A stretch of DNA of 48,460 bases, filler included, from Jimgerdemannia flammicorona (lineage: Eukaryota), in NCBI GenBank assembly GCA_003990765.1. It is 2 parts of 2 records of this genome, joined end to end, with 100 filler letters (N's around TTAATTAATTAA, not from the genome) between each part and the next. Parts side by side here need not be neighbours in the genome. Positions count along the whole stretch, not along the records: positions 1 to 24,182 come from RBNJ01001010.1; 1 more part is not named here. One strand, written 5' to 3'. The notes under the pieces were generated by a model that saw nothing but the letters and a program-made list of their open reading frames with translations, was not told the origin of the DNA and did not search any database. Numbering within the stretch: the stretch's first letter is position 1; the number at the start of each line of letters is the position of its first letter. Made by a program: the position numbers and the translations under genes. Shown here piece after piece: positions 1,721 to 34,500 of this stretch.

Positions 1721-1849
1721 TTTTTTTTTTTTTTTTTTATAGTTACTTGGACTCCTTTATTATGGAACTATCTAATATAACAAGACCCTATCTGATAACT
1801 ACTATAACTATAAATATAAAGAAGAGTCTATCAGCCAATATCTTCTTTC

Positions 1850-5454: not shown

Positions 5455-5469
5455 TATAAATAAAAATGT

Positions 5470-7303
5470 TTAAAGATCCACTGGAATTGCCACCACCTTC
5501 TCCACCCAACCACAGATTATCGCCTTCCATTCCTCACAGATTGCCCTCCAGATATGGGCTCCATTCATGCTACTGTAGAAGATATCTACTTGCTTAGATG
5601 CCACCTTCCTGATGTCTGCCATATAGTTCTCATCCACCTCATATCCTTCATCATCCCGAAGTGCTGCCACCATCACCATCACCAACTTTGGCCCCTACAA
5701 TGCTATATTGAGAAACCCTTCCCAGGCCTCCTGAGATCTATTAAATACATCCACTTCCTTGATATCCTCCTCTGCCAGTTCCTTGAGCACTACCTGATAT
5801 CAGTCATTAGCCATCATCACCAAGGGCCCAGGAGTGGCAGGCCTTGAGGTTCTGCTCAGTTCCTGTAGCATCTCTCTATCTGCCAATACATCAGAGGCCA
5901 CATCCACCAGGTCATCCTCCTCCATACCCTTCTCCAGCCTCACCACTTTGCTGGCCTCTGGATATTCCCAATGGACATTTGTTGCTCCTGCCATATGAAT
6001 ATCCTCCAACTGAGTCTCTGGCACCACCTCAACAACCTCCTCAAAACCCCCTATATTTACCTCCTCCTTATCAGCCCACTTCCCCTTCACTGGCACATGA
6101 GCTGAGTCCTCCACCCCCCCTAGTTGCAAATAGAACACCTCAGCTATCTCCACCTCTTCCATCTGACTCTTGGCCATCTCTATCCTTTCTTTTTCCTCCA
6201 CTTTCGAGCCCTGGAGGACTGTCTATAGGTGCTCCCTGTTCGCTCTCTACCACTTCTTCCTCCTTCTATCCATTGGAATCCAGATCCAGTCCTTGGCAAA
6301 CTCCTCCCATCTCCTCTTTTGCAATTCCTTCACAGCCTTCCTCTCCTCTAGGGCAATCAGCAATTCCTCCTCCTCCTGTTCAGAGCCCTTCCTTCTCCAC
6401 ACTTTGCACTCCTGCCCTTTGACATGAATCACCTCTGGCCGTCCCTCTCTAGCCCTGTGGCCTTCTTACCTTCCAGCCTCACCATTACCTCACAGTTACC
6501 ATTCCTCAGCTTGGTCTCCTCCCAGAACATAAACCCAAAGTCAACCATCTCAATGAAACCCCCCAGTATCTCTGCTACAATCCCTTTAGTCTCCTGTCTT
6601 CTCAAATGTCAGCAGCCTCTCAATCATCAGGCATACAGCATATAGGTCCCACCTCAGGCACCTCACCATGCCAACCTTAATATTCTTGATGACCAGTCCT
6701 TTCTCCAAGGCTTTTGCCATCTCTTCCTCCTCTACAAATTCTATCTCTACTGTCTCAGCTAATGAGATAAACTTCAGTGACTTTGCCCCAGCAACCTCCT
6801 CTCCCACTAATTACAAGATCTCCCTAGCAGATATTCTCAGCTCTAAGAAATATGCCGAGATGACCCACATCAACACCAACTTGTGGAAGAAGGAGTTTAC
6901 CAGAGCCTGCTACCATTATAGCCTCCCTCTTATTCTCAGATACCTCAGCAGTCACTCTAGCCACAGGCCCAGCCCCAGGAATACTAGTCCCAGCTGCACC
7001 ACTTCTGGACCCCTGGCCCCTGGCAGGCACCTGACCAGTCACCTGACCAGTCACCTGGCCAGTTCCCTGACTCCTACCCCTGTCAACACTATGTCCCCCC
7101 TGCCCTACCCCCATGGGCCTAGTAGCTACTCTCCTGCCCCCCATTACTGTGTGCCAACTCTCAATACCAGCCTGCCTTTCATGACCACCTGCTCCTCCAG
7201 CTCCCACACCAGCCCCAGCCACCACTGCAAAACTCTTAGGGAGGCCCAGGCCAGGCCTCCTTCTCTCCAAGTACTCAGAGCTTGATGAATCCTGGGTTGC
7301 CAT
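5470..7303 (-). pseudogene. A1 ORF1 (nucleic-acid-binding protein), disrupted
   Basis: Fragments MATQDSSSSEYLERRRPG, MGEEVAGAKSLKF and MEEKERIEMAKSQ are colinear with the intact 614-aa ORF at 17276-19120. Confidence 0.9.
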
Positions 7304-7475
7304 TCGATGAAGACTCCACAGAATTTGACAAAACTTGTTATAGACTATTACTAGACTCCTGCTACACCTTGTACACCAGTATAGACAAAGTGAAAACTTG
7401 AAAACATATTGCTTTTTGCGAAAAGATGTCTATGTGGCTTAGCTCACTCTGAATGGTTTGAGCAAAAGAACTTCC

Positions 7476-10400
7476 TCCAGTAACCTCAATCCCATCTTCT
7501 TACAACACTGAAGCCCAGCTGTATCACACTTTCCTGGCTTTCAGAATTCCAGATAAATATTTAGTAGGCCACTCTTCTTCTTCCAACCACCTTGCCTGCA
7601 ATCTCACCAATAGACTATCTACTACTCTATCCTTAGCAGCCTTTAGATCTAACTTCAACTCAGCTATCTCCTTGGTCAACTGGGAGTATTGCTCTCCTGA
7701 TAAGTTCTCCTCTTCCAACATCCTCAGCTGCCATTGTAGCTCTTACTTGACCCTCCTCTCTTTATCCTTCTGCTCTCTCTCAGTAATATCCCATATATCA
7801 TACCAATAGGCACCTGCTAAATATTTAAATTTACCCTACTACTGCTCTATCAGCTGTTCACCATTCTTCCACTACATTACTTCCTGCTTTGCAATTTGTA
7901 CAAAATATTCTCACTCTACCTTTCTTTACAGTAGAGCCACATTGAGATGCCAGTGAACTGACTGCCTGAAATCTTCCATATACCTCTACTCTCCAGTGGT
8001 TTGAGCAAGGATACCACCATACTTCTGCTCTATTCAGCATATTGCTCCAGCATTCTGCCACCAGAATCCAATCAATCCTTATCCCAATCAAGTCTTTGCC
8101 AATAGGGTGCCACCTAGTGACGGGCCCTGGCCTCTCTCCCTGACATTACTATACCCCATTGACCAACCATATCTCTCTCAACCTGAAGCCATTGTGAGAG
8201 CCCTACTGAGACTGCTATACTAACCCTACCATCTGACCTATCTAAAGTCCTATCGTGTATACTATATTAAAGTCCCCTCCCAGAATGTTCAGCCCAACTT
8301 ACTCTCAGTCTCCCTAAGTTAGCCAGCTCTCCACCCATTGGTTTTGTTCTCTATCAACTACCAACAGATAAGTAGAGCCTACAATCAGCCCATCCTCAGC
8401 TCCTTCTTTCAATTTCCCCCAAATTAATCAATCCCTATATACTTCAACCTCTACCAGCTTGTCTCTCCCCAAACCAACCAGAATACCCACCTGCCCATTC
8501 CAATCTGTACTGCTATACCACTCTCTGCTCCACTCCTCATAATTCTGCTCACCATAGACTTAAATATCTTGAAGAAATACCACATCATACCTCCTGACCT
8601 TCAGCTAGCAAAACAGACACCTTCACTTCACTCCATCATACAGACCATTGACATTTAATAATAAGATATATAGACTGTTCATCATCTAAAATAAAAATAT
8701 TTAAAGCTCTACAGGAATTGCCACTACCTTCTCAGTCCTACTGTGGATTATTTCTTTTATTTCTTATAGATAACTCTCCAGATACAGACACTATTCACAC
8801 TGCTGCAAAAAACATCCACATACTCAGATGCCACTTTCCTAATATCAGCCATTTGGTTCTTATCTACCTCATATCTTTTATCATTCAGAAGTGCTACTAC
8901 CATCACTGTCACCAACTTCAATCTCTGCATTGCAACATTGAGGAACCCCTCCCAAGCTTCTTGAGATCTATTAAAAACATTCACTTCCTTAATATCCTCC
9001 TCTTCAAGTTCCTCAAGTACTGTCTGATATCAGTTATTGACTGTCATCACCAGAGGTCCAGAGGTGACAGACCTCAGGGTTCTATTCAACTCCTGCAGCA
9101 TCTCTCTGTCTGCTGAAACATCAGAGGCCACATCCACCAGGTCATCCTCCTCAGCACCCTTCTCTAGCTACACCACTTTGCCTGTCTCTAGATATTCCCA
9201 ATGGACATTTGCTGCCTCTACCATATAGACATTCTCTAACTGAGTCTCTGGTACTATCTCAGTAATATCCTCAAAACCCCCTTTGCCTATCTCCTCCTTA
9301 TCAGCTCACTTCCCCTTCACTAGTGTATGGGCTGAGTTCTCCACACCTCCCAGTTGTGAAAAGGATACCTTAGCAGCCTCCACTCCCTCCATCTGACTCT
9401 TGGCCATCTCTGCCCTCACTTCTTCCTCTGCTTTCAAGCCCTGGAGAACTGTCTGCAGGTACTCTCAGTTTGTTCTCTGCTACCTCTTCCTTCTCTCATC
9501 TGTCAGAATCTAGATCCAGTCCTTGGCAAACTTCTCTCATCTCCTCTTCTGCAATTCCTTTACTGTCTTCCTCTCCTCCAATGCTAGAAACAATTCCTTC
9601 TTCTCCCGTTCTGATCCTTTCCTTTATCATACCTTGCACTTCTGCCCTCTAATATGAATTACCTCTGGCCAATCCCTCTCTAGCCCTATGGCCTCCTTGC
9701 TCTCCAGCCTCACCATAACCTCACAGTTGTTATTCCTCAGCTTAGTCCTCTCTCAGAATATGAATCCAAAGTCAACTATCTTACCAAAGCTCACCAGTGT
9801 CTCTGCCACAATTCTCTTAGTCTCCTGTCTCCCCAATATTGACAGCTCTTCTACCATCAGACATACAGCATGCAGATCTCACCTCAAGTATCTTGCTATT
9901 CTAACCTTGATATTCTTAACTACTATCTCTTTCTTCAGAGCCTTTACCATCTTCTCCTCCTCCACAAAGCTGATCTCTACTGTCTCTGCAGATGGAATAA
10001 ACTTCAGAGACTCTGTACCAGCAATCTCTTTACCCACTAGCCATAAAACTTCTTTAGCAGACATCCCCAGTCTCATGAAATTCACCAAGATCACCCATAT
10101 TGATACTAATTTGTAAAAGAAAGGGCATACCACCAGTTCACTAGAGCCTGCTGCCATTGTGGTCTTCTTCTTATTCTCAAAAACTCTAGTAGTTACCTCT
10201 TCTACCCCTGTAGGCCCACCAGCAGTCCCCCCACCAGCCACTGGCTCAGTCTCAGAAATACTAGTCTCAACTGCTATACCTCTGGACCCTTGACCCCTGC
10301 CAGGCACCTGACCAGTCACCTGACTGATCACCTGACCCTTCCCCCTATCAATACTATATTCCCTCTACCCTACTCCTATGGGCCTATATAGCAGCAGCCC

Positions 10401-10740
10401 TGTCCCCCATCACTATATGCCAATCTTCAATACCCACAGGCCTCTCCTGATTACCCACTCCCCCAGTCCCAGTACTAGTTCCAGCCACTACTGTGAAGCT
10501 CTTGGGGAGACCCAGACCAGGTCTTCTCCTCTCTAAATACTCAGAGCTTGATGAACCTTAAGTTGCCATCAGATGAAAACTCTACAGAAATTTATAAAAC
10601 TTGATATATACTATTGCTAGACTCCTGCCACACCTAGTACCCCAGTATAGGTAAAGTAAAAACTTGAAAATGTGTTGTTTTTTGTGAAAAGATACCTGTG
10701 TAGCTTAGCTTACTCCAAGTGGTTTGAGCAAAAGAAGTTC
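7476..10740 (-). mobile_element. LINE A2 (old, degenerate), 5' half: endonuclease, ORF1, 5' UTR
   Basis: Colinear with A1 4240-7470 (IRIDWILV, FLQD, ORF1 fragments). The 5' UTR ends GGTTTGAGCAAAAGAAGTTC at 10740. Confidence 0.9.
8701..10569 (-). pseudogene. A2 ORF1, disrupted
   Basis: Fragments such as ELVVCPFFYKLVSIW and MNVFNRSQEAWEGF match A3 ORF1. The start codon is at 10567-10569. Confidence 0.85.
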
Positions 10741-11253
10741 TAAGTTAATCTGAATTAACTTGGATGGAAAACAAGCTGATCTGGATTGATTCAAATAGAA
10801 TATTATTTTGATTTCCATTAAATATTTACATCAATAATTTGATATATAATCATTCTATTTTAATGATTATAGTATTATTTGAAAGTTTTTTTTTTTTTTT
10901 TTTTTTATAGTTCTTATTTGAAAGCCTTTAATAAGGCCTTTCTAATGATATCAAAAAATTAAGAATATTAAAATTAGATTACATATTGCTGAGTTATTAA
11001 GAAAAACATTCTTTTAAAGAAATTTCCAAAATTAGTAAGTTAAATAATTTCCAAAATCAGCAAGTCAGACATTATTAGAAAGGCCTTATTAAGGACTTTA
11101 AAATAATACCATAATTATCAAAATTAGATATGTAATTATATATCAAGTTATTGATGTAATCATTTAATTGTCTAATTTTGAAAATTAAAACAATAATTGA
11201 TCTAGATCAGCTTATTTTTCATTCAAGATTGAATTGACTCATTTAGAGCATTA
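10741..11253. mobile_element. Foldback MITE of the hAT-like TAGTGCTCC-terminus group; left tip cut off by LINE A2
   Basis: Long inverted arms (AAGCTGATCTGGAT / GATCTAGATCAGCTT; TAATAAGGCCTTTCTAAT / ATTAGAAAGGCCTTATTA). The right end GAGCATTA is the reverse complement of TA(A/G)TGCTC. Homologous to 24029-24182. Confidence 0.8.
10886..10913 (-). mobile_element. 28-bp ultra-truncated LINE-mediated insertion (GAACTAT + A21)
   Basis: T21-ATAGTTC is flanked by a perfect 11-bp TSD TTATTTGAAAG (10875-10885 and 10914-10924). ACTAT(A)n is the shared LINE 3' terminus. Confidence 0.8.
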
Positions 11254-16991: not shown

Positions 16992-17099
16992 TGTCCTGAG
17001 GACACACTTATGTCCAGCAGACACACTCATGTCCTGTAGACACACTCATGTCCTGCAGACACACTCATGTCCTGCGGACACACTCATGTCCTGTGGACA
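16992..17099 (+). repeat. 19-bp tandem repeat TGTCCTGCAGACACACTCA (5 full units plus a partial), continuing after the LINE at 22920
   Basis: Units start at 16992, 17011, 17030, 17049, 17068 and 17087. They are head-to-tail with no spacers. Confidence 0.93.
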
Positions 17100-17275
17100 A
17101 GATTGGACTCCTTTTGCTCGAACCATTCAGAGCAAGCTAAGCCACACAGACATCCTTTCATGACAAACAACACGTTTTCAAGTTTTCCCGTCGTCTATTC
17201 TGGTGTACAAGGTGCGGCAGGAGTCTAGCTACAGTATACAACAAGTCACAATGATTTTGGTGGAGTTTTCGTCAG

Positions 17276-19120
17276 ATGGCAACCCAGGGTTCATCAAGCT
17301 CTGAGCGTTTGGAGAGAAGGAGGCCTGGTCTGGGTCTCCCCAAGAGTTTCGCGGTGACAGTGGGAGCAGGTGTCGGGGCAGGAGGAGTAGGTGGTCAGGG
17401 GGGGCAGGCTGGCATTGCAGGTTGGCACACAGTGATGGGGGGCAGGAGGGTGGCTACTAGGCCCATGGGGGTAGGGCAGGGGGGGCTTAGTGTTGACAGG
17501 GGTAGGGGTCAGGTGACTGGCCAGGTGACAGGTCAGGTGACTGGTCAGGTGCCTGCTAGGGGCCAGGGGTCCGGAAGTGGTGTGGCTGGGACTGGTATTC
17601 CTGGGGCTGGGCCGGTGGCTGGGGTGACTGCTGGAGTATCGGAGAACAAGAAGAAGGTGACGATGGCAGCTAGATCTGGTGAACTGGTGGTGTGTCCCTT
17701 CTTCCACAAATCGGTATCAACATGGGCCATATCGGCGAATTTTTTGGAGCTGGGGATGTCTGCGAGGGAGGTCCTGCGGCTAGTTGGAGAGGAGATTGCA
17801 GGAGCGGAGTCGCTGAAGTTTATCCCATCAGCTGAGGCAGTTGAGATAGGATTCGTCAAGGAGGAGGAGATGGTGAAGGCCTTGGAGAAAGGACTGGTCA
17901 TCAAGAGCATCAAGGTTGGCATGGCGAGGTGCCTGAGGTGGGACCCGTGGGCTGTGCGACTGGTGATTGAAGGGCTGCCAACATTGGGGAGACAGGAGAC
18001 CAAAGGAATAGTAGTGGAGGCACTGGGGGCGTTTGGCGAGATGGTTGATTTCGGGTTCATATTTTGGGAGGGGACCAAGTTGAGGAATGGCAACTGCAAG
18101 GTGATGGTGAGGCTGGAAGGCAAGGAGGCTACGGGGCAAGGGAGGAACTGGCCAGAAGTAGTTCGCATCAGAGGGCAGGAGTGCAAGGTGTGGAGAAGGA
18201 AGGGCTCGGAACAGGAGAAGGAGGAATTGCTAGTCACCCTAGAGGAGAGAGAGACTGCGAAGGAATTGCGGAAGAGGAAATGGGAGGAGTTTGCCAAGAA
18301 TTGGATCTGGATTCTGACTGACGGGAAGAGGAAGAGGTGGCAAAGGGCAAACTGGGAGCATCTGCAGACAGTCCTCCAGGGCTCGAAAAGGGAGGAGGAG
18401 GAAAAAGCAGAGATGGCCAAAAGTCAAATGGAAGAGGTGGAGACAGCTGAGATGTCCTTCTCACAACTGGGGGGTGTGGAGGATTCTACTCACGCTCCAG
18501 TGACAGGGAAGTGGGCAGATAAGGAGGAGGCAACCACTGGGGGCTTTGAGGAGGTCGTCAAGGTAGTACCAGAGACCCAGTTGGAGGATGTTCGTATGGC
18601 GGGAGTGGTGAATGTGCATTGGGAATGCCCAGAGGCAGGCAAAGTGGTTCGGCTGGAGAAGGGCACTGAGGAGGATGATCTGGTAGATGTGGCTTCCGAT
18701 GTGTCGGCGGATAGAGAGATGCTGCAGGAGCTGAGTAGGACTCCAAGGCCTGCCACCCCAGGGTCTATGGTGATGATGGCAGATGACTGGTATCAGGCAG
18801 TACTCGAGGAACTCGCGGAGGAGGATATCAAGAAAGTGGATGTATTTAATGGATCGCAGGAGACCTGGGAAGGATTTCTCAACATGGCATTGCAGGGGCC
18901 AAAGTTGGTGACAGTAATGGTGGTGGCACTTCTGGATGATGAAGGGTATGAGGTTGATGAGGACCATATGGCTGAAATCAGGAAGGTGGCATCAGAGCGA
19001 GTGGTGGTCTTTTGCAATGGGGTGAATAGAGCATGCATCTGGAGGGGTATCTGCAAGGAATGGAAGGCTATTATTTGCAGTAGGGCTGAGAAGGTGGCGG
19101 CAAACCTGGTGGAAATTTAA
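17276..19120 (+). CDS. LINE ORF1 protein, 614 aa, intact
   Basis: Longest ORF in the window, directly upstream of ORF2. Gly-rich N-terminus with GQVT repeats, an RRM-like VRLVIEGLP...EALGAFGEMVDF...NGNCKVMVRL region typical of L1/Tx1 ORF1, and an acidic C-terminal half. Confidence 0.88.
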   Translation: MATQGSSSSERLERRRPGLGLPKSFAVTVGAGVGAGGVGGQGGQAGIAGWHTVMGGRRVATRPMGVGQGGLSVDRGRGQVTGQVTGQVTGQVPARGQGSGSGVAGTGIPGAGPVAGVTAGVSENKKKVTMAARSGELVVCPFFHKSVSTWAISANFLELGMSAREVLRLVGEEIAGAESLKFIPSAEAVEIGFVKEEEMVKALEKGLVIKSIKVGMARCLRWDPWAVRLVIEGLPTLGRQETKGIVVEALGAFGEMVDFGFIFWEGTKLRNGNCKVMVRLEGKEATGQGRNWPEVVRIRGQECKVWRRKGSEQEKEELLVTLEERETAKELRKRKWEEFAKNWIWILTDGKRKRWQRANWEHLQTVLQGSKREEEEKAEMAKSQMEEVETAEMSFSQLGGVEDSTHAPVTGKWADKEEATTGGFEEVVKVVPETQLEDVRMAGVVNVHWECPEAGKVVRLEKGTEEDDLVDVASDVSADREMLQELSRTPRPATPGSMVMMADDWYQAVLEELAEEDIKKVDVFNGSQETWEGFLNMALQGPKLVTVMVVALLDDEGYEVDEDHMAEIRKVASERVVVFCNGVNRACIWRGICKEWKAIICSRAEKVAANLVEI

Positions 19121-19132
19121 ACATTTACATTT

Positions 19133-22100
19133 ATGATGATGAACAGTCTATGTATATTATCACTAAATGTCAATGGTTTGCGTGATGGAGTGAAGCGAAG
19201 GCATTTGTTTCGGTGGCTGAAGAACAGAAGGTATGACTTGATATTTCTGCAGGATGTTCGGGCCTATGGAGAGCAAGATTATGAGGAGTGGAGCAAGGAA
19301 TGGTATGGGAGCACAGGGTGGAATGAGCAGGTTGGAATTCTGGTTGGCTTGGGGAGAGGGGAGCTGAAGGAGGTCGAGAGATATAGTGATCGTTTGGTCT
19401 GGGGGAGACTGAAAGGAGGTGCAGGTGATGGACTTATAGTTGGCTCAGTGTATCTGCCAGCAGTTGGCAGAGAACGAAACCAATGGGTGGAAGGTTGGCT
19501 GGATTGGGAGGGCCGAGAGGAGATTGGGCTGGACATTTTGGGAGGGGACTTCAACATGGTTCATGACAGGACATTAGATAGGTCTGATGGTGGGATCGGC
19601 GTAGTGGTTTCTACAGGGCTCTCATGATGGCTTCAAGTGGAGAAGGAAATGGGAATGGTCGATGGAGTATGACAACATCAAGGTGAGAAGTCAGGGCCAT
19701 TTACTAGGTGGCATCTGGTTGGTGAGGATTTGGTTGGTACAAGGATTGATTGGATTTTGGTGGCAGAATGCTGGGGTAATGTTTTGGATTCGACTGAGGT
19801 ATGGTGGTGTTCCTGGTCAGATCACTGGGGTGTCGAGATGTGTGGGAGATTCCAGGCGGCCAGTGGTGGTGGAGGCAGATGGCGACTTAATGTGGCATTA
19901 CTCAAGAGACAGGGGGAGTGGGACCAGTTTGTCGAAATTGCAAGACAGGAAGTGGCATGGTGGAAGAATAGTGGCCAGTCGATAGCACAGTGGTGGGGGA
20001 AATTTAAACATCTGGCAGGTGCATTCTGGTGTGATGTAGGAGAGGTAGCGGGAAGGGAGCAGAAGGATAGAGAGAGGAGAGCAGAGCAGGGGCTGCGCTG
20101 GCAGTTGAGACTTTTAGAGGGAGAGAACCTCTCAGGGGAACGGCGCTCCCTGTTGATCAAGGAGGTGACAGAGTTGCGGTCAGAATTGAAGGCTGCAGAA
20201 GATAGAGTGGTGGATGGGTTGCTGGCAAGATTGCAAGCCAAGCGGTTGGAAGAAGGAGAGCGACCCACCAAATACTTGTCTGGCATCTTGAAGGCAAGAA
20301 GGGTGAGGCACAGCTGGGCTTCGGTGTTGCAGGAGGATGGCACTAAGGTGACTGATATCTCAGACATGCTTGGGGAAATCTCTGGTCGATGGTGCACCCT
20401 ATGGCAGGATGATGGAGGGCTGATGGAGGGAGGGGCAGCACTGGAGGATAATAACAATTTGGTTGGCAGCTGGCCAGTGGTGGCAGAGCCAGCGATTGGT
20501 GGGGCGGTAATGGGTAGGGTGTCCCTTGAAGAAGTGTTAGAGGTTCTGAGGAAAGTGCAGACTGGTTCATCGTCAGGGGAGGATGGACTGCCTTGGGAGT
20601 TCTGGAAGGAATTTCAAACTGAGCTTGGGGAATGGCTTGTGGAAATGGTGAACTTTACACTGGGGGAAGGCTGCTGGATTGGCAATGGCTCCTTAGGGCT
20701 AGTCTCTCTGCTCTATAAGGAGAAAGGGGACAGATGTGTGTGGTGGAACTGGAGACCCATCATGTTACTGAATGTGGATAGGAAGTTGGTCTCTAAGATT
20801 CTGGCAGGGAGAATGCAACAATGGATTGGCCGATTGGTGGGCGATGAACAGCGAGGGTTTGTGAAGGGGAGGCAGATTAGAGACAGTACAGCATGGGTGC
20901 AAAATGTTTTGGAGGGTTGTCGAAGTCGGCAAGTAGATGGGAGGATGGTGTTTTTGGACCAGGAGAAGGCTTATGACAGGGTGTGGTGGAACTACTTGGA
21001 GGCGGTTCTACAGAAGGCCGGGTTTGATATGGGGGAGGCTCGAAAGCTGATGGGTCTGGTGCGAGATTGCTAGGCTGCAGTGTTGATGAATGGGTGGAGT
21101 GGCCTGGAGTTCCTCTTAGGGCGAGGTGTGCCGCAGAGAGATCCTCTCTCACCCCTGCTTTACATTTTATCTTTGGAGCCCTTGTTGGCATAGTTGAAGG
21201 GGAGGCTTACTGGATTGAAAATGGGGGATGTGGTCTGGAAGTTGGGGGCCTTTGCAGATGATATGGTGGTAGGGTTAGGCAGTGTGGAAGATGTGGCGAG
21301 CTTACAGGAAGGGGTAGGACAGTATGAGATGCTGGCAGGAGTGAAGCTGAACTGGGGCAAGTGCGAGACTATGGAGCTTGGAGCTGGATTGGGGGAGCAG
21401 GGACATTTTGGACAATTAGTTAGACCTGGGGAAGCAGTTCGATATCTAGGCATCTGGTTCTTGGTTTATGGGACAGTGCTGCCAAAAGAGTGGTGGTGTA
21501 GAATGATACAGAAGTGGGAGAATGCCTTGGTGGGCTGGTCTGGGAGGGGCTTCTCCTTGGTTGGGAGGATTTTAGTTTTGAATGTGTACTGGTTACCGAA
21601 GCTGTAGTACTTGGGGTACCACCTGGACTTTCCAGGATGGGTGGTTCAGAAGCTGAAGAAGGTGGTCAAAGGATGGCTGTGGCAGGGAAGGAGATCGCAG
21701 ATTAGCTGGGAAATTATGGTGATGGTGAGGGCAGATGGAGGTCTGGGGTTGGTGGACTTCAGAAGGTGGCTGAAGGTACTTCGAGGCTGGTGGGGTTGTC
21801 GAATGGCAGAATTAGGAGGGGAGGGTTGGAGCAAACTGGCTATGGACAATTGGGAAGTTCGGTTCTGCCCCCAGAGCGAGGTTAGGAAGGACATGCAAGG
21901 TTTGCTCCAGGTTGGGAGGGTTAGCAGGTTACGTTATAGGGGATTTTGGTAGGGTATTGTATGTAGAAGCTTGGCTGGCAATGGGCCTCATTGGCCCAGA
22001 ACCTGGCGAAGAAGAGGAGGACCCAGATCGACGATGGTGGCAATTTGGTGTGATTCATATTGGTGGCCGCCCGTTGGTGGAATACTCTTTATCAGGGGCG

Positions 22101-22754
22101 ATGGAGTGGATCCAGATGGGTCTGCTTGAGAGGTGGCCGGTTGGTTGGCAGAAGGCTGGGTTTGGAGAAGAATGGGAGTGGGGTCGGGTTTGGGGCTGGG
22201 GGACCTCACTACTCAAGATTGCCCCACCCAAGTTCTGGGTGGTATGGTGGCGATTTCTGTGGAGGAACGTCATGCTGGGGTACAGGATGGGGTGGATGGT
22301 AGAAGAAGGTGTAAGGGAATGTGAGTGGTGTTGTGAGATAGATGGGGGAGTAGTGCAGACTCCAGAGCATGTTCTGGCGGCCTGTCCAGGGGTTGAAGGA
22401 TTTTGGCAGACATTGGAAGGTTACTGGGGGGAGGAAAGTGAGCAGGCAGGGGGCCCCACTTGTCGGGTGGTCAAGCGTCGCCTGGTGGGAGAAATTGGGG
22501 ACATCTGGGGAGGCCTGGGTCGGATTATCGGCATCTGGGTACTGATGGCGGTGCACTGGTGATGGGTGTTCGAGAGGGATCCCTGGATGGGAATTGGAGA
22601 ATTGGTGGAGCGGTGGAAGGGGTTGCTCTTGGAAGTGGTGCAAGGGTGGTGGTATCAGGGGAAGAGGCACCAGTTGGGGGCCATGAAGAAGGTGTTAGAC
22701 ATTGTTCAGAGAAGTCGGGAACACCTTGTACTTGGTGAGAAGGGGGTGAGGTAG
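19133..22754 (+). pseudogene. A3 ORF2: APE endonuclease, RT and C-terminal knuckle, with several stops and frameshifts
   Basis: SLNVNGL, FLQD, GGDFN, RIDWILV, SDH, NWRPIMLLNVDRK, FLDQEKAYDRV, AFADD, YLGI, CEWC..EHVLAAC. Stops at 19625, 21071, 21191, 21605 and 21950. Confidence 0.95.
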
Positions 22755-24028
22755 AAAGAAGGGGTAGGCTGAATGGCCCTTCTTTGTATTATTTTAAATA
22801 GTTGTAGGTTGGGTTCATTATTGTTTAAAGGTAATCATAGAGATACATGGATAGTATTCTCTTTCTAGACTAGTGGAATAAAGGAGTCCAAGTGACTATA
22901 AAAAAAAAAAAAAAAAAAATGTCCTGTAGACACATCTGTACTCAGAGGACACACCCAAACATTACTGAAGATAGCAAATCTATAGTTAGCTACATAGTAA
23001 CCAGATAGCAACCAACTTGTATAAATTACCCCAGAGATGAGAGTGAATAAAACCTCAGTCCGAATTGAAGTGCAAACCAAAGAAGCCTCTAAAGATTGAG
23101 CAATTGGTCCCCTTATTCCCACTCTAGTCCACTTTCCGATACAAAGAAGAGTTTGTTATGTTTTTGGTTCGCTTGCCAGATAAGCCTGAAGATTTGCTGC
23201 CTAAGTTCAAGGAGAACTTTGCTGCCTTTGAGAATTCTTGTTATTGGTTCACTTGCCAGATAAGCCTGAAGATTTCTGCCTTTTCCGCTTTTTATGCCAC
23301 CTAAGAGAAAGCTGCCTTGCTCAAGCCAGTTTCTGATGCAACTTTGCAGTGACTCATTTGTGCAAATGAAGCCAGTCTTTGACATAACTTTGCCAAGAGA
23401 CCCTTTCCCAAAGAATGCTGCCAGTTGTTCATATTCCCAGTTGAAGCCTGCCAATTCAGGAAGAATCTGCGCCATCCCATTTCCCAGTTAGAGCCTGCTG
23501 ATTCAGGAAGAATCCACATCACCTGCCATTTCTAAGCTATCCACTGTATTCCTAGTTAAGCCGCCATTTTCCAGAAGTCTGCCAATTCAGAAAGAATCTG
23601 CATCATCCGCCATTCCCAAGTTATCCGCATTTCCAGAAGAGCCCGACCTGTGATATTTGAGTTATTCGTCATTCCTAGTAAGCCTGAGTTATCGAGTTAT
23701 CCGCCACCTGAGATAATTCCCAGTGAGCCCAGTATAGAAGAATCCACGCCATACAATTTCCAGAGAGCTGAATCGAGTCATCTTCCAGAAACCGTATACT
23801 TTTGGAGATCATTGCACTACACAGAGATCATCACACAGAAACTGCATAAGGAGAACTGCTAAATTACCAGACCGTCACGCACAGAGATCATCACGCTACA
23901 CAAGACCATCACCCAGAAATCGCATCCTTTTGGAAATTACCTTGCTATATAAATTCTGCCATTCCCAGTTGACCCAAGAAGGAAACCCATTCACACACAC
24001 ACCCAAATTGCCGCTACACTCAGAGAAC

Positions 24029-24440: not shown

Positions 24441-25910
24441 AAGGTTCGTGTAACCGGATGTATTGCAAAGTCCAAAGGGCATTTAGAGATATTCAAACAG
24501 TTTTCTTAGAGCAAGAAAGACTGTCTTTTGAATGTCTTTTGGGTCTATTGAGATCTTATGGAATTCTGCAAAAAGGTCTATACTGCTGAAGTATCTGGTA
24601 TCTTATAACTAATCCAAGAGGTCATCAATTCTGGGCAAAGGATAGGCATTCTTTTCAGTAACTATATTGAATTTTCTATAATCTATACAAAGTCTCCATC
24701 CTCCTTTCTTTGGTATAATAAGTATAGAGCTGGCCCAGGGGCTGGTTGAGGGTTAGATAACTCTATTATCAAAGAGTTCTTAAATGTACTTCTTTTTGAA
24801 TATCTTTAGATAATGGGGTATTCTATAGGGTTTCTGTCAGATAGGTATTGCATTTCCTATATTTATACTATAGTGATATGATGGGTTGTATGGTAGGTTG
24901 CCATAATCAGTAGTGAAGATGTCTTGATATTGTTAAGGAGTTCCACTAGTTGTTGCCATTATTGGGGTATCAATTCTTCTCCAATGTTGGTGGAAGGTTT
25001 TACTATCTCCTGAGTTGCAGAGGGGCCTTTCCTTTCTTCTGAGATCTTTTGCCATTTCCCAAGAAGTTTAGTTCATAAACTTCGAGTTTGGTTGAGAAAA
25101 GGCACTAGATATCATATGATAGTTTCTTTTAGCAAGATGATGGTTTCTCAACTTTGGTTGATTACTTGGGAGTATACTGGATTCATCTTGTTGGAGAATA
25201 TATATCCTTCTATATCCAAGTGTGAGATATCTTCATTGGGCTTGAAGAAGAGGTTTCTGTGGTCAGATGGTGCAAAGATTTCGAAGGTGGTTTGTTCTCC
25301 TGAACTTCCAAATCCTTTGACTTGTCTTGTTCTTTCAGTCAGTTCAGAGACTTCTATAATTATGGAGTCTTGAACTTTATGATGACTGCTTAGGCAATCT
25401 TCTATTCTCTAATGATTCAGTACTATTCTGTACTACTGTTATGTAGAATGACCTTGATTTCACTGGTATATTCTGGGTCAATGATTTCTCCTTCTATGGT
25501 TATTCCTTGTCTGGCAAGTACAGATCTTGAGGTCAGTTGGATGTAAGCTCCTTAGAGTGGCTGCATGACTAGTCTGGTTCTGATCATAAATGTTTTTCCA
25601 AGCTTGATGAATTTATCCTCCAGACTGTGAAGATTATATTCTACATCTTCTGGGTGAACTTTGGTTGAGGGTTTGGCCTTGGGATGTAATAGGGCATACT
25701 GAGCAATATCTTTGCTGAGTTCAGACTGTTCTTGGGCTGAGGCTCCACTAGCAGAGAGCCTCCAGGCTCTGAGGTTGAGGTGTGGCCATCTGGCTCCAGT
25801 AGAGGGGTCTCAGAGATAGTTGATTCCATCCCTTTCACCAGTAACATTCAGGTGACACAGGATTCAGACAACACTTTTTACAACGTTTTTGGTGTCTGAC
25901 AACTAACAAC

Positions 25911-27840
25911 ATGGATGGCAATGATCGAACTAGTGAGCATACTGGCCAGGGGGGTGATAGTGCCTTTGGCTGGCAGTAGGTGGAGAGGAGGGGTGATGGT
26001 TTGGGGATGCCAGGGGCCTCGATGGCCAGCCGAGGCCCTGGTGGTGGAGGAAGAGGTGGTCTGAGGCAGAGAGGAGAGGAGAGGTCGACCTTTGCTGACA
26101 AGGTCAGAATGGAGAAGATGGCTTCTGGGCTCAATGGTTGGCTGGGCCTGGGGAAGGCATTGATGGCTGCTGCTGGGGGACAGGAAGGTGTGCCCAGGGG
26201 AGCTTCTGGTGGTAGGGTAGGAGCTGGAGTAGGGGCTGGAGATGTGACTGTTGATGGGACTGTGACTGGGGATCTGGCAAAAAATCCAGATGTGACAGCC
26301 ATTGGCAATTCAGGACTGGGAGTGGGCACGAGGCCCGGGGACCTGGCAGATGGGGTGACAGGTATGGTATTGGCCCCATTACTCAAGAAATCAAGGTCCG
26401 AATTTACAGTCATGATGTGCTTCCGGGGCTTAGTTGTGATGGCAAGGATGATTTTGGGGCTGGTGGTACAGGAGGCTAAGAGAGCGGTATCCGTGAAGTT
26501 TCTGAGAGGAAAGGAAGGGGTTGAGATGGGGTTTGAAGAGGAAGATGCCTTGTTGGCAGCCATGGAGAAGGGGGTGACAGTGGGTGGAGTTGTGGTCCCT
26601 ATGGCCCAGTGCATGTGGTGGTGCAGTTGACAGTGTTGGATCTACCCATGGTGTCAAAGGAGAGGACCAGGGAGTTGGTAGTGGAGGCAATCAAGGAGTA
26701 TGGAGAGATTGTTGATGTTGGGTTCAAGGTCTGGGAGGGCATGGAGCTTAGGATTGGTGATATTGATGTCAGGGTAAGGCTGGCTGGGAAGGAGAATACG
26801 GGGAAGTCAAGGGACTGGCCAGCGATGCTGAGGTGGGGACCAGTGGAGTGTAAGGTCACTAGGGTGAAGGGGACCCAGGAGGAGGAAGAGGACCTGTTGG
26901 AGGCCCTGGAGGATCTGGAAGGGGCAGTTGTGAGGAGGAGATTAGCCTGGCAGGAGTTTGAGGCCAGGACAGTGGTGGGGGAGGTGGATGGGAAGAGGGT
27001 CCGGATGGAGAATGGGACCTGGGAGAAGATGCAGGGGAGGAGAATTCAGAAGGAGCTGCTGGCGAAGTTGGGTGGGGATAGGGCTGGTGGTAGCTCAGGA
27101 GAGAGAGTGGCAGGGCTGCGGGAGAGTGCCTGGACTGAGGGGGGAGGAATGGCCCAGGGAGTGGCACCGATTGGAGTGGGGGAGGAAAGGGAAGGTGATT
27201 TGGAGGCGGATGCTGAGATGGGTGAGAGTGTGCACCCTCAGTATAGTGTCCCAGGTGGAGCTGAGGGGGAGGAGGAGCTGCTGGATGTACTGGATGAGGA
27301 GTGGGATGAGTCAGTGAGGAGGAGTGCACTGGTGGACACTGAGGTGGATGGGGGTCAAATCGCTCAGGGTGCAGTGGAAGTGGTGGATGAGGAGAAGTGG
27401 ATGTGGAAGACCCTGGAAGAGATTGTAGCTGAGGAGCTGGGGGGTGAGGATTTCAGGGTGATGGAAGAGAGACATTGGGAGAAGATCCTGTGGGGGGAGG
27501 AGGTGCTGAGGAAGATGAGGAATGAGATCCTGGCTGTCCTTCTGGAGTCAGTCAAATATCAGGTTGATGATCAGCAGGAAGAGGAACTTAGAAAGATTGT
27601 GAGTGACAGAGCACTTTTCCTGTGGAATACGAGGAAGGAGCTGGAGAAGTGGTGTGCAGTCTGCTTAGACTACCAGTCAATATGGAGGTGGTGGATGGGG
27701 TGGAGTGTCAGGAAATTTTGGAGGCACTGGATGCTCAGGCTATTGCAGAGGGTGACTTGGAAGCTGAATGGCGCTTGGATCTGGCTGGGGATGAGATGAG
27801 CATGGAATTCTAGGTTGGGGCCACTATTGCAACATTCTTC
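25911..27840 (+). pseudogene. LINE B ORF1, disrupted
   Basis: ATG at 25911, stop at 25977 and a frameshift near 26610. LEKGLVI / MEKGVTV and EALGAFGEMVDFGF / EAIKEYGEIVDVGF show homology to family A ORF1. End coordinate approximate. Confidence 0.85.
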
Positions 27841-27843
27841 AAT

Positions 27844-30800
27844 ATGAACAGTACAACTAAGATATTCTCATTGAACATTAATAGGTTATGGGGGGTGGCT
27901 AGGAGGAAGTATATATTTGGGTGGCTTAAGGGACTGGATGCGAACCTCTTCTTGTTACAGGATGTTCATTATGAGGCAGATATGAACTTCCAGAATTGGA
28001 CTAAGGAATGGGGGGGCGCAGTAGTATGGTAGGGGAAAGTGTGTATTCTCATTCAGAAAGGGATGGGGGACATTGAGGACATTGGACATTGGGGGTCTCG
28101 AGTGGTGTGGGGAAGGTGGAAGAGGCCTGGATGGGGTTCGTTGATGGTTGGGTCTTGTTACTGCTCAGCTGAGAGAGGGGAGTGAGTTGATTGGATTCAT
28201 AGGTTGAAAGAGGCTGGTATATTGGGAGGCATTGGGTTGGACTGTATGGGGGGGGACTTTAACATGGTATGGGATAAGAAGGTGGATAGAACAGATAGCA
28301 GGAGAGGCATGTGGGGTGAGAGTGGTGGGTTGGGTGACTGGCTGGAGATGGAAAGGTTGTGTTCTTTCATAGACTCAGGTAGACATTTTTGGGCTGAGTG
28401 GCAGGTATACACTTACTGGGTGGCAGGGCTGGGCTCTAGGATTGACTGGGTTCTGATGGCAGAGTATTGGGCAGTGGACATCTGGTCGGCACTGGAAGTA
28501 GTATGGTGTCTGTGGTCTGATCACTGAGGGCTGCTTGGAGGGGGGAGATTTGGGGGAAAGGAGGATGGGCCTGGACATTGGTGGCTAAATTCTTTCTTAT
28601 TGGAGGACAGGGTGTTGTGGGAGGGTTGGGAGATGGAGGTGGTGGGAAATATCAATAGGTGGTGGGAATGAGGCCTTGGGATTGAGGACTGCTAAAGACG
28701 TCTGAAGGCAAATGCTCAGGGGTATTGGAGGGAGGCAGGGAAAGAGAAGGATGCTCAGTGGAGGCAGAGGGTGCGTGGGCTTCATGGCACCTAGCTGCAC
28801 TCATGACGAGATGGGCAGGTGTGCTGGATGATGGGGAGGTGTCTAATTGGTGTATTGTGAGAATCTGGCAGGAGGTAGAGGAGCTTAAAGGAGTGTTGTG
28901 AAGAGAGGAGGAGGTGGAGATGCAGGGAATGGTGGCCCGACTGTGGTGGCAGGGGCTTGAGGAGGGGGAGAGGCCTACTCGGTTTTTGTCATAGTTGTTA
29001 CAAGCATGATATATGAAACAGTAGTGGGAGGGAGTTCTGGATGAGGATGGTGAGCTGGTGGTAGGGACTCTGACAATTCTGGGTACAATGCAAACTCAGT
29101 GGGAGAACCTATAGAGGGAGGAGGAAGGTGGATTGGATGCTCTGGATGTTGAAAGGCAGCTGGCGGATTGGCACCCAAACCCTGCCTTGGGTCTTGGGGC
29201 ATTGGGGGACCTGGTGATTGGTGAGGAAATTTGTAGGGTTGTAGCTTCGACGAGTAAGGGGACAGCCCCAGGAGAGAATGGCCTTCCCTGGGATTTTTGG
29301 CAGAAGATGGCTGGAGTGAGCAAGGTGCTGGAGGAAATGGCTGCTATGTACAATGGAGTTCTTCAGTCTGGTGCTTATATTGGGGGACAGCGATTAGGGC
29401 TAGTGTCCTTACTCTACAAAAATAAGGAGAGGCGGGAGGACTGGAAGAACTGGTGGCCCATTATGCTTCTCGACATGGACCACAAACTGGTGACAAAGAT
29501 CTTGGTGATGAGGCTGCAGGGCATGGCTCAGCAGGTACTTGGTGTGGAGCAGTGTGGTTTTGTTGGTGGTTAATTGATTCGAGATGGGACAGCTTGGGTT
29601 CATGGTGTGATTGAAGGTGCCTGGGCGGCAGGGGTAGATGGCAGATTGGTGTTTCTGGATCAAGAGAAGGCTTATGATAGGGTGCAGAGGATATGGTTGG
29701 AGAGAGTGCTGAAATGAATTGGTATTCCCCCAGGTTTTCGTGGAGCTCTGATCAGCCTCCTGGAGGACAGTCAGGTGGCATTGGTCATCAATGGCCATAG
29801 GGGGGAGACCTTTCCCCTGGGGCATGGGGTACTGCAAGGGGACCCATTGTTGCCCATATTGTATGCCCTTTCCCTGGAGTCTCTATTGGACAGGATTCGG
29901 CAGTGGATTGGAGGTTTGGATATCTTAGAGATTAATTGGAAGGTGGGGGCCTTTGCTGATGATATGGTGGTCGGGCTGGACTCCTTGGTGGATGTGGGGG
30001 AGTTACAGAGGTCTGTGGAATAGTACGAGCAGGGTTCTGGTGCTAAGCTAAACTGGCACAAGTGCAAGACCCTGGTACTTGGTACTGGTATTGTTGGTGG
30101 CGAGGTCATAGGGACAGTGGTACCGGCTGGTGAACCAGTATATTATCTGGGGATCTACTTCTCAGTGTTCAGATCTCTTCTTCCCTGGACATGGTGGGAC
30201 TGTCAGCTTCTGGAGTGGGAAAATGTTCTGCTGCATTGGGGAGGCCGGCCTATGTCTCTAGCCAGAAGGGTGATGGTGCTAAATGTGTATTAGATGCCGA
30301 AGTTGTGGTATGTGGGATACCATTTGGATTTCCCAACTTGGGTGGTCAGGAGGTTGTTGAAGATGGCTAGATCATAGATCTGGGGAGGGCAGCACAGCCA
30401 GGTTGGTTGGGAGGTTCTCACACTGCCCTTAGAAAAAGGTGGGCTGGGCTTAGTGGACTTTGCTAAGTGGCTTCTATGTCTGAGAGCTTGGTGGTTGTGA
30501 AGGGAGAGTGAGCTTAGGGGTCAGGAGTGGGTACCACTCATGCAGAGGTTGTGGGAGGTTCGGTACTCCCCATGTGGTGACTCAGGTGATCTGCTTGCGA
30601 TGGTGACCATAGATGGGAGCAGGAGGATGCAGTTTACTGGCTTCTGGTGGGGGGTGGTGGATGGTGCTAAGAAAATTGGACTTCAGTGGCAAGGTGATGA
30701 GGCCGAGGAGGATTGGAGACTGCAGATGTGGCAGTGGGACAGGCTTCTGCTGAGTGGTGTTCTGGTAGAGAGCTTTCAGCTTGGTGAGGGTCTGGAGTGT

Positions 30801-31505
30801 CTGCGGGGCCTTGGTGGGGACCTGTGGCCTGAAGCCTGGTAGAGGGTTGGAATTGGTGAGGAGTGGGACTGGCATAGGCTCTGGCTTTGGAGCAAAAGAG
30901 TGAGGCAGTGACTGCCCCCCAAGTTCTGGGTGGTGTGGTGGTGGGTCCTATGGCGGAATGTGATGCTGAACTATTGGTCTGGATACTTGGTGGACGGTGG
31001 CATATTTGAGTGCAAGGAGTGTGTCAATGTTGACCAGGAGGGGGGAGTGGTGCAAATGCCTGAACATTGGCTTAGTGAGTGTGAGGTTTTGGAGGAGTTT
31101 TGGAGATATATTATAGACAGAGTAGTGATGGATGCCTTGGAGGGCAAGGGAGGGGGGAGATGGGGTGAGCTCCGCCAGTGACTGGTGGGTGGGGTTGGGG
31201 ATGAATGGCTGACCTTTGGTTGGGCTTTGGCCATATGGGTTGGGTTGGCTGGGTATTGGATTTATGTCTTTGAGAGTGGGCACAGAGTTGGGGTTGTGGA
31301 CAAGGTGGTGCAATGGGAGTGGTTACTATTGGACATTTTGAACAGCTGGTGGTGAGATTGGGGGCTGGGTGGGGGATGCCACCAGGGTTTGGTGCAATGC
31401 ATCTTCCAGAAGAGTGGTGGGCAGATTCGGGTAGTGGGTGATTGGGTGGTGCTCAGGCAGAGGGGGGTCGAGGGGGGAGGGTTGAGGCCCTGGGGCATTG
31501 GTTGA
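27844..31505 (+). pseudogene. LINE B ORF2 (APE, RT, knuckle), disrupted
   Basis: FSLNIN, LLQD, GGDFN, RIDWVL, SDH, FLDQEKAYDRV, GVLQGDPLLPILY, AFADD, CKEC..EHWLSEC. End coordinate approximate. Confidence 0.92.
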
Positions 31506-34500
31506 GGGTGGGGATGATATTATATTATTAGAACTATAGAATTCAGTAATAAAGGGCAGTTCAAGTGACTATAAAAAAAAAAAAAAAAGAGATAGTTGAT
31601 TCCTCTTCTCCCTATAGGGTCTAGGGTTTCCATGAAGTTGGTGGCATCTTCTACCCATCCTTGGTGGGTTATATGTCTGATGAGAGCTAGGATGTCTTCT
31701 CCTAAATTGTAGATCTTGAGGATCCTTCTTCCTGGCTTCTTGGTCTGGCTTTTTTGGATCTGGCCTCTGTTATCTCCTCTCTTTAAGGTGTGGATTATAA
31801 CATTATGACTGAGGTGAATCTTCTGATGTCTGCAGTCTCAGCAATCTAAGTATCTTCTATAATTGCAATATCTCATTGCTTGGAAATGCTATTCCTAGTT
31901 GTTGATTTCTTGTTATCTCAGGAATCAGTATCCATCTTGGTCATAAGTTGGGGGAAGAGTGGACAAGGGATATACTTCTGTTTGGGTGAAGAGGTCTTGT
32001 CCTCTAAATTGACTTTGCAACTTAGTAATAACTTCTTGGAAGATAGTTGACTATGCAACTATATTCAGGAGTTCTGGTCTTTGGGGTCTCTGTCTTTCCT
32101 ATTAGTCTAGTAGATGGCACTGATAGCAGTAGTTTTAGGGAGAGTGGAAGACTATTTGATGTGGGTATCTTCCTAGCTAAAATGCTCTTTCTTGGTAAGT
32201 TTCTTTCTTGAGAATAATGGAGATCATACTGAGTCCTTCTTCTATATTCCAAGGATCATTATCTTCAGGTGGTATCTAGTAAGAGTCATCCTAGAGAATG
32301 AGTTCAGAGACCTCTTCTTCTTCAGGTGCTTCTTGTTCAGGAACTTCTTGATCAAGAGCTTCTTCTTTCTCAGATGATTCTTATTCCCAGATTGCTTGTA
32401 CTTCTGTGGCTTTGGCTGCAGGTGTTTCTGAAATATGTTTGCATTTCTTCTTTTTCTTTCTGCACTCTGGACAGGCTATGCCAGATAACTTCCTTGTCTC
32501 ACTGGTCTTAGAGAAGTGCTTGGGGCACTTGTGTCTCTTGAGACAGATGGGACATTCTTTGATTTCTCCTGCAATGACTCTGATGGTAATATAGATGGTG
32601 TTCTTGGCCTATATATTGTCTTCTGATCTGTCATCCACTAGGTTAATTTGGGAATTGAATCTGGGATCATTTCCATCTTCAGATTCTTCTTCCTCTTCTG
32701 TAGTAGATTCTTTACTACTGGTATATTTTTCCTAAATAGTGACCTTCTTCTTCTTCTTTGATTGCTCATAGCTGGTCATCTTGACTCTATACTTCTTATC
32801 TCAATAGTCAAACTTGAGTACTTGTTGACCAATATCAACAACTGTATTCATTTCCTTCATCCAGTTGATGTCAAGGATCATATCATAGATAACAGCTTTG
32901 GTGACAACAGCTTTTGGGATAAAGAACTGAATGTGTCTAAGAGAGATGGTGATGTTTCATACTTCTATAAGGAGTTGAGTTCAGGCTCCATCTGCTACTA
33001 TGATGCTGAGGTTAGATGGTCCATCAATGAGCAATTGGAGGGTATTCAGGAATTGTTTAGTAATGATATAGATAGCTACTCCTATGTCTATAAGGATTTT
33101 TGCCTTTTGTTCTCCAATATCTCTATGTAGGTAGGTGCTGACATGTCTTTCTACAGCTTAGATAGGAATGAAAGCTGGCTTCTGTTGTGGGATTGGAACT
33201 CAGCCAGTGCTAGACCTGGTAGTTCTTAGCAATTTGTTTTGAACTCTAGCTGGTATCAGTTGCAGGAACTACAGAAGGAAGATCTCCATCTTAGCTTCTT
33301 GAATCTTCTGCCAGGCCTTATAGATGTCTCTGGGTATAGTCTTTGGGGTATACTTCTTTTTAGGCTTTGGGACAGCAGGCTCCCATTCTTCTTATTCTAT
33401 TTTTTTATTCTCTAGAGGCAATTCATTTATCTCTGGGACAAAATGTGAGGAAGTTCAGAAAGGTGTTTCTACTTTTTCTTCTTTATATTCTTCATCTTCT
33501 TCTTCGATGATTCTTCTGCTGATATTTCTAGATGGTCTTCCTACAGATCTTTTCCTTTTCTCTACTGGATAGACTGTCATTTATGTAGTAACTTTGGCTA
33601 GATATAAGTCCAGATCACTGTAGTCTTTACTGTTGCTTTCTTCTTCAAAGTCTTTGACAGGATAGGCTTTAGTCTTCTTATACTGAGTTTCATTCCTTCA
33701 ATTTGGTATTTCTGAATCCCTTCAGTCACTTTTTTTATTGTCACATTTAGTGACATAGTATCTAAATTGTCCACAGTGGAAGTATTAGACTTGGGCTCTG
33801 TCTTAGACAAGGTATCTTCTTTCTTCTTGCTGATAGCTTCTATTATCTCTTAGTAGATAACCTTGGCTTCTCTGAGGTGGGCATCCTCTGTTGTCTTAAT
33901 AACTCTGATTTTCACATATAGTGAGTTTTTCAATCTGTCCAACTAATTGGTCCAACTTGGAGCTAAGGTCTTGGATTTTGCTTCTATCCTTCTTTTCTTC
34001 CTTAGCTGGCCTTCTTTCTTCAGATCTCTCTTATCCTTGAAGGAGTCCTTATAGGGCTTTGACCAGGATATCTTTCTTATTATCCATCTTGTTATGGTTA
34101 CTCCAGGTAGTTTCTTATCTGATATCAAAGAATCCTTGGACTATATCTACTTGCTCTTTGGACCTTCTAATACCTAAGGTACAGATATACTGGACAATGT
34201 TCAGGGAAATCTCATTCATGAAAGTCATTAGACTTATGCTGTTTTGGTTGGTAGTATTAAACCTAGCTATATATATTCTTTTCTGGATTCTTGTAAAGAA
34301 GGCTCTGGGTAATTCTTCAAGATTCATCTTTATCTCTATAATGGACTCTTGAGCCTTATGGTGGGTTTCATTTCCTGTATATTTTTCAATGAGCCAGTGG
34401 ACCATAGCTACATATTCCAGATCATAGGATGCTGCTGCTTATATTTGTACTGCCAGTTCTAAGTGAGGGTCATTTGTTGTTTAGTGGAAAATTCCTCTGG

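Follow-up and report, generated by a model that had tools for sequence, protein, structure and literature searches.

Most insertions of LINEs (long interspersed nuclear elements) are 5'-truncated, and what determines their completion is an open question. Could pairing between the two ends of the element's own RNA be such a determinant? The question is raised by LINE copy A3 (17100..22919, + strand), which lies in a 48,460-nt stretch of DNA from Jimgerdemannia flammicorona (GCA_003990765.1; the whole stretch, two parts of two records joined by 100 filler letters, is called the window below). The 5' end of A3 is complementary to a segment close to its poly(A) tail. This complementarity exceeds chance, and A3 is the sole copy in the window where this is so. 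We tentatively read the complement as part of the inherited, transcribed 5' end of the lineage of A3 and its relatives A1 and A2 (the A lineage), and not as an artefact of insertion; it would let the ends of the RNA form a panhandle. With similar reserve, a functional RNA panhandle seems plausible.

Complementary ends of A3

The 5' arm of A3, TTGGACTCCTTT (17103..17114, + strand), is the exact 12-nt reverse complement of the 3' arm, AAAGGAGTCCAA (22880..22891, + strand), which overlaps the AATAAA signal (22877-22882). Both arms are seen in the sequence, in the full-length fold and in a shuffle test. The original prediction had described this perfect 12-nt match and both arms read as it said, at the same coordinates. 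Its wording that they are the first bases of the element and lie just before the poly(A) needs a small correction, since AGA (17100-17102) stands between the target-site duplication and the 5' arm, and 8 nt (GTGACTAT) follow the 3' arm before the poly(A).

Chance was assessed by the longest complementary run in 20000 shuffles of the two termini (30 nt at the 5' side, 60 nt at the 3' side). A 12-nt run as in A3 was reached in 4 of these, and the longest run between the A3 5' end and 190 internal 60-nt windows of the same element was 7. Among 1916 windows, none forms a better duplex with the first 16 nt than the 3' arm does (-18.8 kcal/mol, rank 1). The panhandle is also part of the minimum-energy fold of the complete A3 RNA (5806 nt, -1876.3 kcal/mol), where 17103-17113 pair with 22881-22891 and further helices stack on it (17117-17154 with 22604-22750). 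The 5' arm likewise picks the 3' arm when the 5' untranslated region (UTR) is cofolded with the last 156 nt. In a consensus fold of the three A-type 5' UTRs, columns 1-13 are unpaired, and a hairpin that all 3 copies keep follows immediately.

Related copies and competing explanations

The statement that the window holds four 5'-complete copies is borne out for A1, A2, A3 and B. Copy A1 (1721..7477, minus strand) has 80% identity to A3 and sits within A2, whose 5' part (7478..10743, minus strand) has 75% identity to A3. The remainder of A2 resumes at 1720..1 (minus strand) and then leaves the window, and its 3' end lies outside. For that end, beyond window position 1, the alternatives are AAAGAAGTTC, which would be the compensated state, and AAAGGAGTCC. 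Copy B (25828..31588, + strand) represents a separate family with 30-51% amino-acid identity to pieces of the A3 open reading frames (ORFs). Both ends are thus visible in three elements only: A1, A3 and B.

The bases ahead of the invariant TTTTGCTC are agaTTGGACTCC in A3, (ga)GGAAGTTC in A1 and ttaGAACTTC in A2, so that the homologous 7-mers directly before it read GGACTCC, GAAGTTC and GAACTTC, respectively. A2 matches GGACTCC at 5 of 7 positions (both differences are transitions) and A1 at 4 of 7. Since these bases have homologous counterparts in A1 and A2, they belonged to the inherited RNA template and were not added at the insertion of A3. The complementarity in the A lineage is real and probably inherited. 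The descriptions of the other 5' ends were accurate: the + strand at 10730-10740 reads AAAAGAAGTTC, two transitions off AAAAGGAGTCC (the A2 5' arm, read from the sequence on the minus strand, is GAACTTCTTTT, 10740..10730), and the A1 5' end, GGAAGTTCTTTT (7475..7464, minus strand, direct reading), is more eroded. The A1 3' arm, AAAGGAGTCCAA (1758..1747, minus strand), is identical to that of A3. Despite the 80% identity of the elements the final 27 nt ahead of the poly(A) contain 1 difference between A1 and A3, and the 3' UTR immediately upstream of those 27 nt aligns poorly between the two copies.

Several observations weigh against a panhandle. In A1 the 5' arm carries 3 changes and the 3' arm none, so that the changes are uncompensated. 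Its longest Watson–Crick run is 4, which 19959 of 20000 shuffles equal, its 3' end ranks 473 of 1895 as partner of the 5' end, and in a cofold the 5' end stays local. A1 and A2 share an A at -6 and a T at -2, and the older state may therefore have been a less complementary GAAsTTC. Either GGACTCC is ancestral and decayed twice, or the A3 lineage may have gained two changes that improve pairing. A1 and A2 agree and differ from A3 at 310 of 3214 ungapped aligned sites, a count that fits either polarity. In B, the 5' end ATCCCTTT (25828-25835, + strand) and AAAGGG (31551-31556, + strand) are present in the sequence as had been noted. Their 6-nt match is at chance level (longest run 6, equalled by 6664 of 20000 shuffles), the B 3' end ranks 1454 of 1897 as a partner, and the full-length fold joins the 5' end to a G run at 31470-31477 while AAAGGG pairs locally. 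The covariation proposed between the families (TCCTTT/AAAGGA versus CCCTTT/AAAGGG) is unsupported, because it requires that the extra G of B is a substitution, and this G can equally be aligned as part of a 2-nt insertion (AAAGG-GC-AGTTC versus AAAGG-AGTCC). The potential for the predicted pairing of RNA or cDNA ends is real for A3, where the 3' arm ranks first and the full-length fold contains the panhandle, and fails for A1 and B.

A3 itself also provides points on this side. A 25-nt 5' probe binds best to internal windows rich in G (-25.3 kcal/mol at element position 261), and the A3 3' end is outside the top 8 of the 1150 windows scanned with it. Folded alone, the 5' UTR pairs the arm with GGAGUCUAGCU near 17220, which is within GCAGGAGTCTAG. 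For RNAs of 5.8 kb, minimum-energy folding is unreliable and prone to join the two ends. Finally, many windows were scanned, so a coincidence of 2 in 10000 will be found somewhere.

These points bear on three other explanations. A serious, though still doubtful, possibility is that the complement is inherited and functionless, an accident of history that has persisted in the transcribed 5' end. A template switch or snap-back in an ancestor could have added, on one occasion, a short stretch of the 3' end in inverted orientation, or a partial chance match (YCUUU/AAAGG plus a few pairs) could have been extended to 12 nt by two neutral transitions in the A3 lineage. This would fit the lack of compensation in A1, where the 5' arm is no better kept than the 5' UTR (3 of 10 positions changed versus about 20% overall), and the situation in B, which has the 5' hairpin and the 3' box and yet has not kept the pairing. 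It would also fit an A2-type arm, which forms 8 Watson–Crick pairs, 1 G-U pair and 1 mismatch over 10 positions with the A1/A3 3' arm (near chance by a rough estimate), and the large look-elsewhere effect over the whole scan. Less easily explained in this way are the rarity of a perfect 12-nt run in shuffles, the position of the arms, in a single-stranded leader and adjoining a conserved 3' box, which is what a working element needs, and the identity of the 3' arm between A1 and A3 next to a 3' UTR that is not conserved.

A true working unit could instead be the AGGAGTC motif or a local 5' stem, which we consider distinctly unlikely. Either the 5' arm and the invariant GCAGGAGTCTAG about 115 nt downstream would close a 5' UTR domain, or AGGAGTC would be a protein-binding site in the 5' UTR and at the 3' end, with the 3' complementarity as a side effect. 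GCAGGAGTCTAG (17217..17228, + strand) is the same in A1, A2 and A3 and is a second complement to the 5' arm, hence a local alternative partner; it is the motif that the arm pairs with when the A3 5' UTR is folded alone, and AGGAGTC occurs on the A3 + strand at 17219 and 22882 only. Still, the local stem is absent from the three-copy consensus fold and from the A1 and A2 folds, it requires two G-U pairs compared to 12 Watson–Crick pairs with the 3' arm, the full-length fold and the cofold prefer the 3' arm, and B has no AGGAGTC-type motif. An origin at the insertion of A3 itself is the least probable of the three and seems very unlikely. Reverse transcriptase (RT) at the RNA 5' end would have switched onto the 5' region of the complementary DNA (cDNA) at an AAA/TTT microhomology and copied a few bases, which predicts an inverted piece of the 3' end at that single 5' junction. 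Consistent with such a switch are the additional AGA, and possibly TT, that separate the target-site duplication from the stretch in common with A1 and A2. The two T by which the match grows from 10 to 12 nt also lack a clear counterpart in A1, and imprecise LINE 5' junctions are known (PMC4245944, PMC11331408). It is contradicted by the same-place homologues of the seven arm bases GGACTCC (5 of 7 in A2, 4 of 7 in A1), and the switch would need to have ended after 9-12 nt.

An inherited, transcribed complement that allows a panhandle thus remains our tentative reading. Among the three elements with both ends, a very small sample, the pairing is retained across relatives neither by conservation nor by compensation, and A3 therefore does not qualify as a demonstrated cyclization element. 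At the start of the A3 transcript, ahead of the conserved 5' hairpin, there would be a short pyrimidine-rich leader that is single-stranded, and over 12 nt this leader is perfectly complementary to the segment between AAUAAA and the conserved terminal box CAAGUGACUAU. Pairing of the ends would close the RNA into a panhandle, which could sequester and protect the 5' end and keep it beside the RT bound at the 3' end. A 5' end held near the RT might then give more full-length cDNA and favour formation of the 5' junction. The mechanism is plausible in view of two precedents: CYC5:CYC3 of Ty1, a functional 5'-3' RNA pairing in a long terminal repeat (LTR) retrotransposon (PMC3681743), and the R2 template, in which a stable 5'-end structure raises insertion efficiency (PMC11331408). 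That this LINE lineage uses pairing between the 5' leader and the segment before the box as a cis-acting panhandle that raises the share of full-length copies, as the first such cyclization element of a non-LTR retrotransposon, is on balance unlikely. If true, a cyclization sequence would be a simple cis-determinant of full-length LINE insertion and would place LINEs beside Ty1 and RNA viruses in the logic of end pairing. Should the complement be a relic or coincidence, what remains is a new L1/Tx1-like LINE family of a soil eukaryote with a conserved 3' box and 5' hairpin.

Structure of the element, its neighbours and its relatives

A3 consists of a 176-nt 5' UTR, ORF1, ORF2 with an apurinic/apyrimidinic endonuclease (APE) and an RT domain, a 3' UTR, AATAAA and poly(A). 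Its ORF1 (17276-19120, + strand) encodes 614 aa in an intact reading frame, for which a Pfam search matched no family, and the ATG codons of ORF2 start 13 nt past the ORF1 stop. The APE domain (Exo_endo_phos, E 3.1e-07, 19121-19627) is N-terminal to the RT domain, which is hit twice by RVT_1 (E 2.9e-11, 19673-21073; E 0.0033, 21194-21607). The C-terminal zinc knuckle zf-RVT scores below the cut-off of 27.5 (14.8 bits, E 0.046). ORF2 contains six in-frame stops (TGA at 19625 and 19670; TAG at 21071, 21191, 21605 and 21950) and at least one frameshift near 21816-21952, and a reading frame broken in this way marks A3 as a dead copy. The 13-bp target-site duplication, TGTCCTGTRGACA, has the same base at 12 of 13 positions in its upstream copy TGTCCTGTGGACA (17087..17099, + strand), which is inside a 19-bp tandem repeat array (16992-17093), and its downstream copy TGTCCTGTAGACA (22920..22932, + strand).

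The A3 3' terminal box CAAGTGACTAT is followed by A20 (22889..22919, + strand). The 11 nt that precede the tail, CAAGTRACTAT, are common to A3 (22889-22899, + strand), A1 (1749..1739, minus strand) and B (31562-31572, + strand), though the A and B proteins are only 30-51% identical; they are a likely recognition or cleavage box at the 3' end. AGTC-CAAGT-GACT, which had been named as a local hairpin in competition with the panhandle, is present at 22885-22897 in A3. The hairpin of 4 bp is too weak for that role: it has -2.4 kcal/mol in A3, 0 in A1 and -0.2 in B, and 45, 200 and 145 of 200 shuffles, respectively, fold at least as well. We therefore rejected it as a competitor on account of its negligible energy.

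The 5'-proximal hairpin of A3 (UUUGCUC / loop GAACCAUUCA / GAGCAAG, 17113..17136, + strand) adjoins the 5' arm and shares its last two T. Folds place its counterparts at 7464..7441 in A1 and 10733..10710 in A2 (both minus strand) and at 25835-25855 in B (+ strand). The hairpin is common to families A and B, with similar loops (GAACCAUUCA in A, AGUAACAUUCA in B) and different stems. Counted from the loop, the stem pairs are C-G, U-A, C-G, G-C and U-A in A3 and C-G, C-G, A-U, C-G and U-A in B, so that 3 positions are altered on both sides with pairing kept. Its energy is unremarkable, as the proportion of shuffles folding as well is 0.13 for A3 and 0.03 for B. A contact of the loop with the 3' UTR (CCATTCA with TGAATGG, 7 nt) was considered and dropped, as it is found in A3 only and A1 and B have no match of at least 6 nt. 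An Rfam search of the window gave no ribozyme or other family.

The poly(A) tails are A20 in A3, A18 in A1 (1738..1721, minus strand, from the sequence) and A16 in B. A1 is flanked by a target-site duplication of 8-10 bp, GGTTAYTG(RA), and B by a perfect one, GAGATAGTTGATTCC (25813-25827 and 31589-31603, + strand, 15/15 bp). In the nested insertion at 1-10743, A1 enters A2 at a site equivalent to A3 20345-20354. A minimal insert, GAACTAT plus A21 (10913..10886, minus strand), lies between perfect 11-bp duplications CTTTCAAATAA (10924..10875). It looks like the end of the LINE 3' box with its tail, left by reverse transcription that aborted after a few bases, so extreme 5' truncation also occurs. 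In mammalian L1, poly(A) priming rests on a T-rich nicked end. The target-site duplications in the window start with TGTCC (17087), GAGAT (25813), GGTTA (7485) and CTTTC (10924), none of them an A run, and judged by these sites poly(A) priming does not seem to depend on a T-rich nicked end, unlike in mammalian L1.

Over the shared 3.2 kb, A3 contains 74 CpG, A1 9 and A2 3. This makes A3 the youngest of the copies and implies that CpG is lost in the host, and the falling counts point to CpG methylation and deamination in the host. The LINE sense strands (1-10000, 17100-22900 and 25800-31600) have about 47-55% G+C compared to 27-30% in the surroundings, and G well exceeds C in them (GC skew about +0.45 to +0.5). 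Further retroelement sequences are a third LINE RT fragment (46414-47313, + strand), which has 30-41% identity to A3 RT pieces and contains stops, and whose element ends were not found within the window, and AT-rich LTR-type remnants at 39727-39954 (+ strand), 41813-42145 (+ strand) and 15568-15834 (minus strand). The LTR-type remnants encode a CCHC zinc knuckle (E 2.6e-4), a weak RVT_1 under the cut-off (E 4.6e-4) and an RT-linked RNase H (E 1.9e-13).

A3 has 18 protein relatives, the best of which are metagenome proteins with 42-57% identity. The nearest named relatives are plant proteins labelled LINE-1 or TX1, which are distant (E 1e-10 to 1e-22). In keeping with the G-rich sense strands, the metagenome relatives have many W, G, R and E residues. 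Three runs of one soil metagenome study were compared with A3. In run X1, 976 short contigs align to A3 at 80% likeness or more, and therefore the soil metagenome clearly contains the family. The best-supported 40 of the 630 differences between X1 and A3 include none in the arms, which says nothing on arm variation, and the bin at 22708-22918 is thinly covered (depth 4.59) and has no evidential weight. In run X2 one contig (depth 2) links 17055 to 22976 with A3 absent. It possibly represents the empty site of A3 in a relative, at a threshold of 80% likeness and with a joint that is blurred by the tandem repeat. We regard A3 as a copy of an L1/Tx1-like LINE whose AT-rich, CpG-depleting eukaryotic host also occurs in a soil metagenome.

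Further copies were sought with two anchors, one in the 5' UTR that does not constrain the arm (AGCTAAGC, 32 nt, TTTTCAAGTTTT; it matches A1, A2 and A3) and a 3' anchor (AATAAA, 5-16 nt, CAAGTRACTAT, poly(A)). The 5' UTR anchor gave 22 loci in the metagenome scan, none with blastn similarity to A3 or B at E<=1e-3, and the 3' anchor gave 36 loci in genome_contigs, all in prokaryote records without similarity to the elements. Both sets are chance matches. In viral_contigs neither anchor had a match (0 and 0), and of 227 pattern matches in a protein-profile scan of the same set 0 were confirmed.

Comparison with known systems

By its coding and end features A3 is an APE-type LINE, with RT, APE upstream of RT, no LTRs, a poly(A) and target-site duplications. 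Terminal complementarity could also recall a DNA transposon with terminal inverted repeats, which was rejected since the 3' arm is 8 nt plus poly(A) away from the end and APE and RT are encoded but no transposase. Like L1/Tx1-like LINEs, the elements have ORF1 upstream of ORF2, APE followed by RT, their own AATAAA and poly(A), target-site duplications of 8-15 bp and 5'-truncated inserts. Unlike these, the 5' leader of A3 is complementary to the segment before the poly(A), an 11-nt 3' box is common to families with 30-51% protein identity, the target-site duplications do not start with A runs, ORF1 has no Pfam match and the sense strand is strongly G-rich. In the open-access literature, judged by titles and abstracts, we found no description of 5'-3' terminal pairing in a LINE.

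In influenza virus, bunyaviruses and flaviviruses, complementarity of about 10-15 nt at or near the termini closes the RNA, and these viral panhandles form the polymerase promoter and are strictly conserved. The ends of A3 are complementary over a similar length. However, its 3' arm is internal to an 8-nt box and the poly(A), and conservation fails in A1 and B.

Another comparison is with CYC5:CYC3 of Ty1, short complementary stretches near both ends of the genomic RNA. Ty1 uses virus-like particles, a tRNA primer and strand transfers, whereas LINEs replicate by target-primed reverse transcription, which involves no strand transfer that end pairing could aid. Moreover, the pairing in A3 is predicted only, and its relatives do not establish conservation. 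The stringent LINEs UnaL2 and ZfL2 resemble the elements of the window in having a conserved 3' terminal sequence that is likely read by the element's own protein. Unlike the 3' stem-loops of UnaL2 and ZfL2, the 4-bp local 3' hairpin of these elements folds at shuffle level, and a stringent-type 3' stem-loop was rejected for the same energies as given above. As for the opposite end, R2 offers a likeness in that a structured RNA 5' end can aid insertion (PMC11331408).

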